A stretch of DNA of 21,765 nucleotides, from IMG/VR virus record IMGVR_UViG_2690316064_000002. One strand, 5' to 3'. This DNA is from a virus (taxonomy: Duplodnaviria; Heunggongvirae; Uroviricota; Caudoviricetes). This document shows positions 8,651 to 12,010 of this stretch, piece by piece. The position numbers and the translations under genes are program-made. How positions within the stretch are numbered: the first letter of the stretch is position 1; the number at the start of each line of letters is the position of its first letter. Under the pieces are notes generated by a model. The model was given only the letters and a program-made list of their open reading frames with translations. It had not been told where the DNA came from and did no database searches.

Positions 8651-8661
8651 TTCTTAAGATT
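8628..8661 (+). promoter_or_regulatory. pRE-like CII-dependent promoter (TTGC-N6-TTGT repeat and AAGATT -10), directed toward cI across the cII start
   Basis: TTGCtgtaacTTGT...AAGATT has the same architecture as lambda pRE (TTGCgtttgtTTGC...AAGTAT) and spans the cII start codon. Confidence 0.4.
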
Positions 8662-8735
8662 TCCAATAGTGAATAGTTAGTTGAAAGGTATGCGTGGAAA
8701 CGCATATGGCCTTAGTTGGTCAGATATCTTGGGAC

Positions 8736-8750
8736 TCGCTTTGTCAGCGA
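8736..8750 (-). promoter_or_regulatory. nutR boxB hairpin, P22-type (GACAA pentaloop)
   Basis: Minus-strand UCGCUGACAAAGCGA between cro and cII; it is a near-copy of the nutL boxB at 11447-11461, and the GACAA-loop form is what I recall for P22 rather than lambda. Confidence 0.5.
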
Positions 8751-8788
8751 CGTAGGACGAATGTCCATTGTGAAAATAGCGGTGTTAC

Positions 8789-8989
8789 TTATGCAGTTGT
8801 TTTTTTGTTACTTGGAAAGGGCTTTACCTCTTCCGCATAAACGCTTCCATCAGCGTTTATAGTTAAAAAAATATTTCGGCCTGCATGAATGGCCTTGTTG
8901 ATCGCGCTTTGATATACACCGAGATCTTTAGCTGTCTTGGTTTGCCCAAAGCGCATTGCATAATCTTTCAGGGTTATGCGTTGTTCCAT
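8789..8989 (-). CDS. cro: Cro repressor (lambda immunity)
   Basis: 66 aa, [38 protein letters not shown]...; matches lambda Cro. Confidence 0.95.
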
Positions 8990-9015
8990 ACAACCTCCTT
9001 AGTACATGCAACCAT

Positions 9016-9083
9016 TATCACCGCTAGAGGTAAAATAGTCAACACGCACGGTGTTAGATATTTATCCCTTGCGGTGATAGATT
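9016..9083. promoter_or_regulatory. Right operator: oR1 (9016-9032), oR2 (9040-9056), oR3 (9062-9078) with divergent pR (-10 at 9014-9019, -35 at 9037-9042, minus strand) and pRM (-35 TAGATA, -10 TAGATT at 9077-9082, plus strand)
   Basis: oR2 and oR3 are identical to the lambda 17-mers as I recall them; oR1 differs at one base (see findings). cI starts at 9090 directly at the pRM start region (leaderless arrangement as in lambda). Confidence 0.9.
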
Positions 9084-9089
9084 TAACGT

Positions 9090-9803
9090 ATGAGCGCAAA
9101 AAAGAAACCATTAACACAAGAGCAGCTTGAGGACGCACGTCGCCTTAAAGCTATTTATGAAAAAAAGAAAAATGAACTTGGCTTATCCCAGGAATCTGTC
9201 GCAGACAAGATGGGGATGGGACAGTCAGGCGTTGGTGCTTTATTTAATGGCATCAATGCATTAAATGCTTATAACGCCGCATTGCTTGCAAAAATTCTCA
9301 ACGTTAGCGTTGAAGAATTTAGCCCTTCAATCGCCAGAGAAATCTACGAGATGTATGAAGCGGTTAGTATGCAGCCGTCACTTAGAAGTGAGTATGAGTA
9401 CCCTGTTTTTTCTCATGTTCAGGCCGGGATGTTCTCGCCTGAGCTTAGAACCTTTACCAAAGGTGATGCGGAGAGATGGGTAAGCACAACCAAAAAAGCC
9501 AGTGATTCTGCATTCTGGCTTGAGGTTGAAGGTAATTCCATGACCGCGCCAACAGGATCCAAACCTAGTTTTCCTGACGGGATGTTAATTCTGGTTGACC
9601 CTGAGCAGGCTGTTGAGCCAGGTGATTTCTGCATAGCCAGACTTGGGGGTGATGAGTTTACCTTCAAGAAACTGATCAGGGATAGCGGTCAGGTGTTTTT
9701 ACAACCACTAAACCCACAGTACCCAATGATCCCATGCAATGAGAGTTGTTCCGTTGTGGGGAAAGTTATCGCCAGCCAGTGGCCTGAAGAGACGTTTGGT
9801 TAA
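9090..9803 (+). CDS. cI: CI repressor (lambda immunity), near-identical to lambda cI
   Basis: 237 aa; matches lambda cI along its length apart from about two substitutions relative to my recollection (residue 3 A vs T; KILNV vs KILKV). Confidence 0.96.
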
Positions 9804-9880
9804 GGCCAGCAACGGATCACAACAAACACATGGGGCGGCGGATTAAGGGTGATGGAGAATCGAAATAAGTTGAGGTCAAC

Positions 9881-10036
9881 ATGAACACGTTCAGCATAAT
9901 CGCGATACCTTTTTTTGCCCTTTCAGTGGTTCTGTTGACTCTTGGCGCTACCAGGAAGAACCAAGCCAGCTTCATCGTTGGCGGCGTGTTTATGGCGTCA
10001 TGCGTGGTTAATGCCATTATCGGCATGTCTCTTTGA
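9881..10036 (+). CDS. Hypothetical small membrane peptide (51 aa, two hydrophobic segments); first gene of the rex-position cassette
   Basis: ATG at 9881 preceded by GAGG; MNTFSIIAIPFFALSVVLLTLGATRKNQASFIVGGVFMASCVVNAIIGMSL. Below the track length cut-off; it conflicts with the 69-aa minus-strand track ORF, which I consider spurious. Confidence 0.4.
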   Translation: MNTFSIIAIPFFALSVVLLTLGATRKNQASFIVGGVFMASCVVNAIIGMSL

Positions 10037-10228
10037 GCGCTATGAGATCAGGCATCCTCGTTACTTTGTCATGTGTGACAGCCTGGTATGCACTCTGCGA
10101 GCTTTGATGTGGTTTACCACTTTAATAGTCACCGTATCACTAAACTGATTAGCTTTACTCATACTCTTGTGGATTCGCTATTTCTGATGTCAATGCAAAA
10201 AAATACTAAGGAAACAAAAAGGATACTT

Positions 10229-10495
10229 ATGTCAGATAACACTATTAAAATCATACCTCAGCACATGACCGCCACATCAGTTCTTATTACGCCTGATCGT
10301 GCTGAAACAATCATTACTTTTTACCGCCATGAATTTGAGCATCACATGCAGTCTGATGAGCAAGGAAAGAATAGCTTCCAAGTAAAAGTTGAGTTGACCC
10401 CTAACATGTCAGTCTCAATGAGCCCGGATCAAGCTGTTGCATTAGTAAAATCATTACAGGTAGCTCTCAGGGATAATGGGCTATGGAAAGACTGA
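10229..10495 (+). CDS. Hypothetical 88-aa soluble protein (rex-position cassette); alternative upstream start at 10088
   Basis: ATG at 10229 with AAGGA 7 nt upstream; the track's longer 135-aa version (from 10088) lacks a recognisable SD. No family recognised. Confidence 0.5.
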   Translation: MSDNTIKIIPQHMTATSVLITPDRAETIITFYRHEFEHHMQSDEQGKNSFQVKVELTPNMSVSMSPDQAVALVKSLQVALRDNGLWKD

Positions 10496-11133
10496 AGCCA
10501 GTTTCTTCAGTTCAACCTACCTCAGGAATAACATCATCAGTTCTTCCAAGTATTATAGTTAGTGCAACCCTAGCAGCGACAACCGTTTCTCCTTATGGGG
10601 ATCCATCTCAGTACCAAAGTATTGGTATTGATGCTAAGGTATCAAATAGAGTTTCATACGCCATGGACGAAACGGGTTTGCGCCCAAGTAAGGAAGATGT
10701 AGCGATGAAGAGTGATACCCTGGAGGTAAGCGTGAGCGGAATGTCCAGAGAAGAACTTGACGCAAAGCTTTCACAAAACAAATCAGAGGTAGAGTCTATT
10801 GCTGCGGAAATGCGTCGCGAATCAGCTGACTTTAAAACCTATTATACTCAGCAATTTTCTTCTATTGAGAGAGGTATTGCTGAAATTAAAGGTGAAATCG
10901 GCGGTTTGAAAACGGGACTTACAACGACTCAGTGGGCGATGGCCGTTGGCTTGACTTTAGTTACTGTGATTCTGTCTGGCGTGATGTTAGCCTCAAGTTG
11001 GATTATCTCCGGCAATGACAAGTCACCATCAGTAACCAGCCCGGCTCCAATTATAATACAGGTACCGACACAGCAACCATTAACGAGCGCTCCAACTAAC
11101 CAATCGTCATCACAACAAGCTCCTAAGCAATAA
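10483..11133 (+). CDS. Hypothetical membrane-anchored protein: N-terminal soluble/coiled-coil region, one TM helix, C-terminal Pro/Ser/Thr/Gln-rich tail (rex-position cassette)
   Basis: Start overlaps the upstream stop (ATGGAAAGACTGA), indicating translational coupling. Helical heptad-like stretch SREELDAKLSQNKSEVESIAAEMRRESADFK; TM TTTQWAMAVGLTLVTVILSGVMLASSWIISG; tail SPAPIIIQVPTQQPLTSAPTNQSSSQQAPKQ. Confidence 0.6.
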   Translation: MERLKPVSSVQPTSGITSSVLPSIIVSATLAATTVSPYGDPSQYQSIGIDAKVSNRVSYAMDETGLRPSKEDVAMKSDTLEVSVSGMSREELDAKLSQNKSEVESIAAEMRRESADFKTYYTQQFSSIERGIAEIKGEIGGLKTGLTTTQWAMAVGLTLVTVILSGVMLASSWIISGNDKSPSVTSPAPIIIQVPTQQPLTSAPTNQSSSQQAPKQ

Positions 11134-11138
11134 ATAAA

Positions 11139-11165
11139 CCCGGCCACCGCGCCGGGTTTTCTTTG
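11139..11165 (+). terminator. Strong intrinsic terminator ending the cI-distal lysogenic operon (timm-like)
   Basis: CCCGGC-CACCGC-GCCGGG hairpin followed by TTTTCTTTG, 6 nt after the stop of the 216-aa gene and before oL3. Confidence 0.7.
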
Positions 11166-11316
11166 CCTCACGTTCGCCCCAAAACACATAACCAATTGTA
11201 TTTATTTGAAAATTAATAGATACAACTCACTAAACATCGCAATTCAGATCTCTCGATCACCTCCCAAGCCACACACCCCTGCAAAAAAATAAATCTATAT
11301 AAAAAACATACAGATA

Positions 11317-11378
11317 ACCATCTGCGGTGATAAATTATCTCTGGCGGTGTTGACATAAATACCACTGGCGGTGATACT
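11317..11378 (+). promoter_or_regulatory. Left operator/promoter: oL3 (11317-11333), oL2 (11336-11352), oL1 (11360-11376), pL -35 TTGACA (11350-11355) and -10 GATACT (11373-11378)
   Basis: TATCTCTGGCGGTGTTGACATAAATACCACTGGCGGTGATACT is the canonical lambda oL/pL sequence; similarity to lambda ends about 20 bp downstream of the -10. Confidence 0.92.
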
Positions 11379-11446
11379 AAACACATCAGCAGGACGCACT
11401 ACTCACCAGGGCGGTGAATATACAACGATTCGAATATGAATCTACG

Positions 11447-11461
11447 GCGCTGACAAAGCGC
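11447..11461 (+). promoter_or_regulatory. nutL boxB hairpin, P22-type (GCGCUGACAAAGCGC)
   Basis: Perfect 5-bp stem with GACAA loop in the pL leader; paired with a P22-like N protein downstream. Confidence 0.55.
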
Positions 11462-11626
11462 AATAACCAAAGTGAACTTTGGGGTGTGGTGAAGGGTTCA
11501 TGGACGGGAATATGTCGCACGTAAAGCGGCGAGGCCTGCGGGACTATTGCCGAATTGAAGTAGGCCGAAACAGGTCGAAATGGGTCTCCCACCTACCACA
11601 CCACCAAAGTTCATCAGGAGGTCTAT

Positions 11627-12010
11627 ATGACACGCAGAACTCAGTTCAAAGGCAATTCACGTTCTCGTCGTCGTGAGCGTTTAAAGGCAAAGGCATTAGC
11701 TAACGGCGTACTGGCCCGCGAAGAAGCAATAAGTTCAGAAGTATTACACCGCCCTACTCTAAGCAGAGCGCAGATTCAGGCTAAAGGTACTCACGAAACG
11801 CCTGAGCGCATAGAAGACGCTAAGCCAATTAAGTTCATTGCACAGGACGTGATCTGGCAACAGAAAGAATACAGACGCAATCTGGAGCGAGCGGCCATTG
11901 TGTACGCGAATGAGTTTGGACATAAGCAACCAGAAACTGGTGTATGTCTTCCAAACGTAGCCATTTACGCGGCAGGATACCGGAAATCAAAACAACTGAC
12001 AGCCAGGTAA
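11627..12010 (+). CDS. N: N-family transcription antiterminator, P22 gp24-like (not lambda N)
   Basis: 127 aa; arginine-rich motif near the N-terminus (NSRSRRRERLKAKALA) and C-terminal LPNVAIYAAGYRKSKQLTAR resembling the P22 gene 24 protein end; SD AGGAGG at 11615-11620. Confidence 0.8.
   Translation: MTRRTQFKGNSRSRRRERLKAKALANGVLAREEAISSEVLHRPTLSRAQIQAKGTHETPERIEDAKPIKFIAQDVIWQQKEYRRNLERAAIVYANEFGHKQPETGVCLPNVAIYAAGYRKSKQLTAR

Follow-up and report, generated by a model that had tools for sequence, protein, structure and literature searches.

Several lambdoid phages carry early control regions that closely resemble the one analyzed here. In HK97 (AF069529 / NC_002167, 26036-29727; Juhala et al. 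2000, J Mol Biol 299:27), this region runs cII-nutR-cro-oR-cI-gp49-gp48-oL/pL-nutL-N stop. The wild imm-lambda phages HK106 and mEp234 (EF120461, EF120460; Degnan et al. 2007, Mol Microbiol 64:232) have annotated operators, pRE, nutL and nutR. In H-19B and 933W (AF034975, AF125520; Neely & Friedman 2000, Mol Microbiol 38:1074), the N gene and nut sites are those of the locus described below and cII is ~91% identical, but the same linkers enclose a repressor, Cro and operators particular to each phage. Two more distant references are lambda (J02459), which shares with our locus CI, Cro, six operators, pR, pRM, pL and Timm but differs in rexA/rexB, in its GAAAA/GAAGA boxB loops and in having an N and a cII of its own, and P22 (NC_002371), which shares the GACAA boxB and the C-terminal ~30 residues of N (gp24).

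Colinearity with HK97 and distribution

The region under study, within a 21,765-nt stretch of DNA referred to here as the window, is the early control (regulatory) region of an E. coli lambda-like prophage. This prophage is very probably integrated at the lambda attachment site adjoining ybhC, with an early-region layout as in HK97, HK106 and mEp234, in which a lambda-specificity switch (cro-oR-cI plus oL-pL) sits between N, nut and cII sequences typical of H-19B, 933W and HK97; both ybhC and int were found at the window end. Positions 8314-12008 align with HK97 in a single colinear alignment of 3,696 columns at 98.8% identity, with all elements in the same order. Colinearity with one known phage is what the original prediction had named as its own refutation, and on this point it is refuted. 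Mismatches to HK97 (43 in all) fall in clusters, 25 of them in cII-nutR and 10 in the 3' half of the N gene, with none in cro-cI, so the block does not descend simply from HK97 itself; the cII N-terminus and the nutR boxA differ between the two, and the block is nearer to HK106 in cII and nearer to 933W in N. HK106 and mEp234 are 99.5% identical to the window across cII-nutR-cro-cI and 98.5% identical across Timm-oL-pL-nutL-N, and the operators, pRE, nutL and nutR annotated in their records are the same as those of the window.

It is highly unlikely that the block arose as a novel mosaic in this prophage, in a combination absent from characterised phages. In favour of such an origin, no phage record covers more than 50% of the whole window, and lambda-type O/P genes lie beside the HK97-type cII, where HK97 itself has P22-type replication genes (18 and 12). 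However, in addition to the colinearity with HK97, the junction between cII and lambda-type O is the same in H-19B and 933W, and at least six complete E. coli genomes contain the block at 100% identity, while 46 of 5,426 cover 80% or more of it. A novel origin is thus contradicted for 8314-12008, and what sets this prophage lineage apart is solely how the block combines with the modules around it; beyond N, for example, HK97 carries gp45 and the window a different 75-aa ORF. As identical blocks are present in several complete genomes, chimeric assembly of the contig is also unlikely.

The lambda immunity cassette and the slot downstream of cI

Two parts of the region are closely related to lambda, namely positions 8775-9799 (cro, oR and cI; 97.7% identity) and 11137-11417 (Timm, oL and pL; 89.7% identity). 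The cI gene (9090-9803, + strand; HTH_3 and Peptidase_S24) encodes a 237-aa repressor of lambda specificity that is 99.2% identical to lambda CI (changes T3A and K71N) and 100% identical to the repressors of HK97 and HK106. The cro gene (8789-8989, - strand; Pfam Cro, 3e-35) encodes a 66-aa protein, also of lambda specificity, that is 98.5% identical to lambda Cro (change K39N) and 100% identical to that of HK97. Five of the six operator 17-mers are identical to lambda: oR2 (9040-9056) and oR3 (9063-9079) within the right operator (9016-9079), together with oL3 (11316-11332), oL2 (11336-11352) and oL1 (11360-11376) on the + strand. The sixth, oR1 (9016-9032), has one central change relative to lambda that is common to HK97 and HK106. 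Consensus scans placed pR on the - strand (-35 at 9042, -10 at 9014) and pL on the + strand (TTGACA-17-GATACT, 11350-11378, with its -10 at 11373-11378). A Timm-like terminator, detected as a hairpin by scan at 11136-11159, is kept in lambda, H-19B, HK97 and HK106 and is named Timm in EF120461. The original prediction that cI, cro, oR and oL/pL are lambda is borne out by these identities, and the CI, Cro and tripartite oR and oL that define the imm-lambda group are all present by sequence. Given this near-identity, the prophage should be lambda-immune. By homology with lambda and H-19B, on which the mechanism proposed here is modelled, CI would repress pL and pR through the lambda-type operators.

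The cassette had also been expected to have been exchanged as a unit, and here the prediction fails, as rexA-rexB are replaced by HK97 gp49/gp48-like genes, with two added inner joints at ~9800 and at 11137, where lambda-type sequence resumes at Timm. No lambda similarity was found over 9800-11136. The slot in place of lambda rexA-rexB (9804-11136, + strand) holds three ORFs, all on the + strand: a 51-aa membrane ORF (9881-10036), a gp49-like ORF of 88 aa (10229-10495) and a gp48-like ORF of 216 aa with a C-terminal membrane anchor (10483-11133). It is colinear with HK97 gp49/gp48 and 99.8% identical to HK225. The ORFs fall in PHROG families of unknown function and received no assignment from PADLOC, Pfam or NCBIfam. 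In HK106 and mEp234, the interval between cI and Timm contains hicA/hicB and one ORF rather than gp49/gp48-like genes, and this interval is a further variable slot whose cargo changes from one imm-lambda phage to another. Lying after cI and before Timm, the cargo could share a transcript with the repressor in the lysogen. By analogy with RexAB, HicAB or BstA at the same position, we tentatively suggest, as a possibility on the doubtful side, that it is an uncharacterised prophage-expressed exclusion or defence module.

N, its nut sites and cII

Folding delineated two nut sites. In nutR (8736-8781, - strand), boxA is CGCTATTTT (8773-8781), followed by the spacer hairpin GGAC-AUUC-GUCC (8755-8766) and boxB TCGCTGACAAAGCGA (8736-8750); in nutL (11395-11461, + strand), a putative boxA CGCACTACT (11395-11403), assigned by analogy with the HK106 annotation, precedes a spacer hairpin (11427-11442) and boxB GCGCTGACAAAGCGC (11447-11461). 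The two sites form a 19-nt inverted repeat (95%), and both match H-19B and 933W exactly in boxA, spacer hairpin and boxB. Records EF120461 and AF125520 carry nutR annotations, although HK97 and HK106 have CGCTCTTTT as nutR boxA, from which the CGCTATTTT of the window, H-19B and 933W differs by a C->A change. An Rfam search with all 4,227 families (E<=1) gave no boxB, nut or oop match in the interval; the sole phage RNA match was a cIII thermometer at 13079-13137.

Each boxB folds into a 5-bp stem with a GACAA loop, in agreement with the predicted P22 form of the pentaloop. The nutL boxB is identical to P22 nutL boxB at 15 of 15 nucleotides and is the same as the RNA of PDB 1A4T, a complex of boxB with an N peptide (PMC11480772); the nutR boxB has the P22-like loop on a different stem. 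There is next to no likelihood that these hairpins are chance or convergent features unlinked to N specificity. The arginine-rich motif (ARM) of N is no closer to the P22 peptide than to the lambda peptide (6/19 identical to each, ungapped), as such a reading would allow, but the 13-mer CGCTGACAAAGCG occurs in exactly two copies in the 21.7-kb window (chance expectation 0.02), at 11448-11460 (+) and 8737-8749 (-), which are precisely the canonical nutL and nutR positions. In addition, H-19B, 933W, HK97 and HK106, which span three immunities, all retain the hairpins along with N, and the function of H-19B N at its nutR has been shown experimentally (PMC3526286).

The N gene belonging to these sites (11627-12010, + strand; Pfam N_peptide, 2.8e-15; PHROG 271) is of the H-19B/933W/HK97 type, with identities over all 127 aa of 99.2% to 933W, 97.6% to HK97 and 96.9% to H-19B. 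In BLASTP comparisons, only the last ~30 aa (residues 99-127) align with P22 gp24 (67%, E 3e-10), and lambda N is matched only along a weak N-terminal stretch (E 0.007). Because the alignment with gp24 is confined to those ~30 aa, the resemblance is partial; global identity is 39%, the ARM is loosely similar, and N is not a gp24 orthologue along its full length. The suggestion that N resembles gp24 rather than lambda N thus stands for the C-terminus and is set aside for the rest of the protein. These comparisons also bear on whether the region is a recent direct lambda x P22 recombinant, in which N and nut from the Salmonella phage P22 were joined to the lambda immunity cassette, as the title of the original prediction implies. 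The shared nutL boxB and the gp24-like end of N are what such an origin would lead one to expect, but outside the 15-nt boxB, little or no relationship to P22 is seen in the nut regions (including spacers and boxA), in the N leader or over most of N; blastn gives only a 71-nt, 74.6% match at the 3' end of N, cII does not align with P22 c1, and N is 97-99% identical to proteins of the E. coli phages H-19B, 933W and HK97. A direct lambda x P22 cross is therefore extremely improbable.

The assignment of the nut sites as P22-type likewise has to be revised to H-19B/933W/HK97-type, with only the boxB hairpin P22-like. The P22 arrangement, a canonical boxA (CGCTCTTTA) a few nucleotides 5' of boxB at both nut sites, is not seen here, as no canonical boxA lies within 45 nt of the nutL boxB and nutR carries CGCTATTTT instead. 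Nus-factor dependence at these sites may therefore differ from that of lambda. The H-19B N protein reportedly acts independently of NusB and S10.

Antitermination by H-19B N on H-19B nutR/tR1 is experimentally documented, and the ARM mutants R3H, S11F and R15C are defective (PMC3526286). Residues R3, S11 and R15 are all present in the N of the window, and from the near-identity of the proteins we infer that it is active on the nut sites described here, allowing readthrough of tR1 and other terminators. On induction, the pL and pR transcripts would carry nutL and nutR, the GACAA boxB would be bound by the arginine-rich N-terminus of N, and N together with host Nus factors would enable RNA polymerase to resist termination. 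Searching PDB sequences with N gave no meaningful match. In at least one identical genome, PGAP misses N, which is annotated there as a partial 'regulator'. Upstream of the gene, a long leader hairpin (11472-11612, + strand; inverted repeat I17) ends 5 nt before the N ribosome-binding site, and the stretch 11440-11640 has a minimum free energy of -74.1 kcal/mol (z = -4.0). This hairpin may be analogous to the RNase III hairpin of the lambda N leader.

On the other side of the cassette, cII (8354-8650, - strand; Pfam Phage_CII, 1.1e-31) is of the HK97/HK106/H-19B type, 99% identical to HK106, 91.8% to HK97 and 933W, and 36% to lambda. The pRE promoter (8628-8660, + strand) comprises a CII site TTGCTGTAACTTGT (8628-8641) and a putative -10 TAAGAT (8655-8660), in sequence and position as annotated in EF120461. 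An oop-like antisense RNA unit (8296-8408, + strand), picked up by a consensus scan and with coordinates mapped from lambda oop, has a promoter (TTGAGT-17-CATAAT, 8296-8324) and a terminator hairpin with T-run (8378-8405), and overlaps the 3' end of cII. The predicted retention of the pRE architecture and oop around a divergent cII is accordingly confirmed, with the features of a CII-type activator in place: a Phage_CII family protein, a TTGC-N6-TTGY site that spans the pRE -35 within the start of cII, and antisense oop. The divergent CII would activate pRE through TTGC-N6-TTGT, and oop would be antisense to the end of cII.

As the same N, nut and cII surround different repressors in H-19B and 933W, N travels with its nut sites while the immunity region is swapped, and the predicted co-variation of N and nut is upheld.

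Joints and relation to modular phage evolution

The outer joints were placed by informative sites in a comparison of the window with lambda and H-19B. The right outer joint (8795-8797) falls within the last three cro codons, between the last lambda-only base (8797) and the first H-19B/HK97-only base (8795), at the start of GCATAA-TAAC-CCGCT (cro stop/boxA). The left outer joint (11384-11400, + strand) coincides with an invariant 17-mer, CATCAGCAGGACGCACT, at the pL transcript start, a stretch without informative sites; lambda-only bases end at 11383 and non-lambda bases begin at 11401, with lambda-type sequence upstream and H-19B-type sequence downstream. This 17-mer spans 6-22 nt past the pL -10, in accord with the prediction that lambda similarity stops ~20 bp beyond it. 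Lambda, 434, P22, H-19B, HK97 and HK106 all share its 13-nt core, ATCAGCAGGACGC, which is invariant in seven sequences from four immunities. Both outer joints therefore fall on short conserved linkers, the cro stop/boxA and the initial 13-17 nt of the pL transcript. A third joint (8314-8325), between the cII/oop module and lambda-type O, lies on the conserved TTTGTCATAAT (O start codon/oop -10), which, like the oop terminator, is conserved in an alignment with lambda, HK97, H-19B and P22; the HK97 match begins at 8314, from which lambda-type O/P extends leftwards. The ends of BLAST HSPs were rejected as joints, as the lambda HSP runs to 11417 and 8415 and overruns the real switches (11384-11400 and ~8314-8325 by informative sites) because the sequence is partly conserved there.

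The mosaic most probably originated by homologous recombination within the short lambdoid-conserved stretches at the two outer joints. Since each of these joints separates operators from a nut site, an exchange of immunity can leave CI and Cro with their operators and N with its nut sites.

In total, the observation of lambda CI, Cro and operators amid non-lambda nut, N and cII is correct, with the named features lying where the original prediction placed them but without the P22 assignment of N and nut, and what it describes is classical modular mosaicism that is already known. Beyond bookkeeping its importance is small, and its practical use is in annotation, from which a lambda-immune prophage with an H-19B-type N would be expected. 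The locus is a clean, well-resolved illustration of how lambdoid phages evolve under the classical modular theory: immunity, N/nut and replication modules reassort at short conserved linkers without parting any protein from its nucleic-acid targets. The mosaic is an ordinary one, as the same arrangement was already recorded in the HK97 genome (2000) and in its relatives from the imm-lambda wild-phage survey (2007), and is found in dozens of sequenced E. coli prophages.

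Layout and kinship of the early-control region

A lambdoid prophage makes up the window, reversed relative to the lambda map. By best E. coli match, int, xis and ybhC, the gene beside the lambda attachment site, lie at the right end, while Q, the nin genes, P and O occupy the left side. The flagged interval, 8651-12010, is the immunity and early-control region; cII (8354-8650, minus strand) and cro (8789-8989, minus strand) are transcribed opposite to cI (9090-9803, plus strand) and N (11627-12010, plus strand). The coordinates and descriptions that the original prediction gave for the switch, the boxB hairpins, cII, the CII-activated promoter pRE and oop, the antisense unit over the 3' end of cII, were all checked and are correct.

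A single alignment with phage HK97 covers 8314-12008 in 3,696 columns at 98.8% identity, its ends lying at the O/cII boundary and the N stop codon, and the gene order (cII, cro, OR, cI, gp49, gp48 and N) is shared throughout. Such colinearity with one known phage is what the original prediction had named as its refutation. The block recurs at 100% identity in six or more complete E. coli genomes, and it is covered to at least 80% in 46 of 5,426 genomes. The 43 mismatches to HK97 are unevenly distributed, with 25 in the stretch from cII to nutR (8325-8777), none within 8778-10368 and a further 10 in N, all in the 3' half of the gene. Nearest relatives also differ by gene, being HK106 for cII and 933W for N, so that the histories of the flanks and the switch are separate.

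Elsewhere in the window, Rfam searches matched Lambda_thermo, the cIII translational thermoregulator, at 13079-13137 (plus strand; 88.5 bits, E 1e-20), and twice matched naRNA4, a REP-type repeat element, at 21510-21646 in host DNA beyond ybhC, one match being above the gathering score. A match to STnc100 at 395-600 (minus strand), downstream of the Q-like antiterminator region, stays below threshold, scoring 37.7 bits where the gathering score is 47.

A lambda-type switch with a replaced rex slot

The mosaic in the original prediction is real, in that CI, Cro and the operators are established by sequence as lambda-type and N and its nut antitermination sites as H-19B/933W-type. By blastn, 8775-9799 (cro, oR and cI) is 97.7% identical to lambda, and 11137-11417 (the terminator Timm, oL and pL) is 89.7% identical. 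CI and Cro depart from their lambda counterparts by two residues and one residue, respectively, and oR2, oR3, oL1, oL2 and oL3 each match lambda at all 17 positions. oR1 (9016-9032) carries one central substitution, reading TATCACCGCTAGAGGTA where lambda has ...GCCAG...; as this change is common to HK97 and HK106, it is a lineage marker of the wild lambda-immunity cassette. With these components, pL, pR and pRM would be under CI and Cro control as in lambda. That cI and cro are transferred together among lambdoid phages is statistically documented (PMC9836094).

The immunity cassette was not, as had been proposed, exchanged as a unit. Similarity to lambda is absent between the cI stop codon (9799) and Timm (11137), where three open reading frames (9881-11133, plus strand) take the place of rexA and rexB. 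They encode a two-helix membrane peptide of 51 aa, a protein of 88 aa like HK97 gp49 and one of 216 aa like HK97 gp48, the last having a P/S/T/Q-rich tail and a membrane anchor at its C-terminus. All three fall in PHROG families of unknown function, and searches of these frames with PADLOC, Pfam and NCBIfam returned no assignment. The same three frames are present in HK225, at 99.8% identity. PMC8585504, citing Degnan et al., describes the cI-Timm interval as a known hotspot of mosaic diversity.

The joints were placed from positions that distinguish lambda from H-19B, each scored for the phage with which the window agrees. The right joint, between cro and nutR, is lambda-type down to 8797 and H-19B-type from 8795, which puts it within the last three cro codons, and it opens the segment GCATAA-TAAC-CCGCT (cro stop through boxA), near-identical in lambda, H-19B, HK97 and HK106. 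At the left joint, between pL and nutL, lambda-type sequence reaches 11383 and H-19B-type sequence begins at 11401; with the pL -10 at 11373-11378, the predicted loss of lambda similarity about 20 bp downstream of it holds. The 17 nt in between, CATCAGCAGGACGCACT, are identical in the window, lambda and H-19B and, by the HK106, 434 and P22 annotations, match the start of the pL transcript. Their core, ATCAGCAGGACGC, is invariant in the window, lambda, 434, P22, H-19B, HK97 and HK106, spanning four immunity types and three nut types. A third joint, between cII/oop and a lambda-type O, falls on the conserved TTTGTCATAAT around 8314-8325, and H-19B and 933W have the same junction; a further joint lies at the N stop (12008), exactly where HK97 similarity ends. 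The suggestion that the joints fall on short conserved linkers is thus borne out at the cro stop/boxA and at the pL transcript start. The mosaic probably arose by homologous recombination inside these linkers, and because they sit between operators and nut sites, an immunity swap would never part a protein from its target. Directly after the N stop, a 75-aa open reading frame (12011-12238, plus strand) belongs to PHROG 5305, of unknown function, and differs from gp45, which holds this position in HK97.

N and its nut sites

The window has exactly two copies of the 13-mer CGCTGACAAAGCG, at 11448-11460 (plus strand) and 8737-8749 (minus strand), against a chance expectation of 0.02, and each copy is predicted to fold into a 5-bp stem with a GACAA pentaloop. 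The nutL boxB, GCGCTGACAAAGCGC, is identical to that of P22 nutL and to the RNA bound by the P22 N peptide in PDB 1A4T (PMC11480772). The complete nut regions, however, are those of H-19B and 933W, with identity extending over the nutR boxA, spacer hairpin and boxB and the nutL spacer hairpin and boxB. The nutR boxA at 8773-8781 (minus strand) reads CGCTATTTT in all three, unlike the CGCTCTTTT of HK97 and HK106. At nutL, no canonical boxA was found in 11395-11446 (plus strand), close to boxB. The "putative boxA" annotated at nutL in HK106, CGCACTACT, lies 44 nt upstream of boxB and overlaps the universally conserved pL-leader linker, and therefore may be no boxA at all.

N is 99.2% identical to its counterpart in 933W, 97.6% to those of HK97 and HK106 and 96.9% to that of H-19B, so the P22 origin proposed for N and nut does not hold, while their proposed linkage does, as both match H-19B/933W. 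BLASTP aligned P22 gp24, the P22 N protein, only to the last 30 residues (67%); global identity is 39% to gp24 and 30% to lambda N, and the arginine-rich motif, compared without gaps, has 6/19 identities to either the P22 or the lambda peptide. Since similarity to gp24 is weak elsewhere, "P22-like" fits the boxB hairpin and the C-terminal RNA polymerase-binding tail, not N as a whole. The action of H-19B N on H-19B nutR/tR1 has been dissected experimentally, with the N-terminal mutants R3H, S11F and R15C being defective (PMC3526286). All three residues hit in those mutants are present in the window's N.

The N leader is predicted to form a long imperfect hairpin (11472-11612, plus strand; MFE -74 kcal/mol over 11440-11640, z = -4.0), with arms at about 11472-11490 and 11594-11612 that end 5 nt before the N Shine-Dalgarno. 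It is reminiscent of the hairpin in the lambda N leader that RNase III processes. A similar motif, CAAAC...GGTTTGG, follows boxB in P22. Annotation of this N type is inconsistent between genomes: in NZ_CP148374.1, which has an identical block, PGAP covers only the last 69 nt of N (11942-12010) as a partial "regulator", and an IS1203 insertion lies about 200 bp downstream; other genomes name the gene "transcriptional antitermination N peptide".

cII and comparison with known phages

The cII product belongs to the Phage_CII family, is 36% identical to lambda CII and gave no alignment to P22 c1. TTGC-N6-TTGT at 8628-8641 occupies the position of the CII site of pRE annotated in the HK106 record, through which CII would activate pRE, and an oop-like promoter and terminator are present. 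Two further sequences, TTGCGTGTAATTGC at 18797-18810 (plus strand), upstream of the xis/int region, and TTGCGAGCACTTGC at 2174-2187 (plus strand), antisense within the Q-like gene, look like candidate CII sites of pI and paQ, equivalents of which are annotated in the 434 record. If so, the divergent, non-lambda CII must act on TTGC-N6-TTGC in neighboring modules of other ancestry.

Identity to the wild lambda-immunity phages HK106 and mEp234 (Degnan et al. 2007) is 99.5% for cII-cI and 98.5% for Timm-N; in both phages, hicAB occupies the cI-Timm slot. The arrangement is already known, having been deposited and annotated in HK97 (AF069529) and HK106/mEp234 (EF120461, EF120460), and its N/nut/cII part is known from H-19B and 933W. 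The region exemplifies lambdoid modular mosaicism already on record, and the arrangement recurs in many E. coli genomes.
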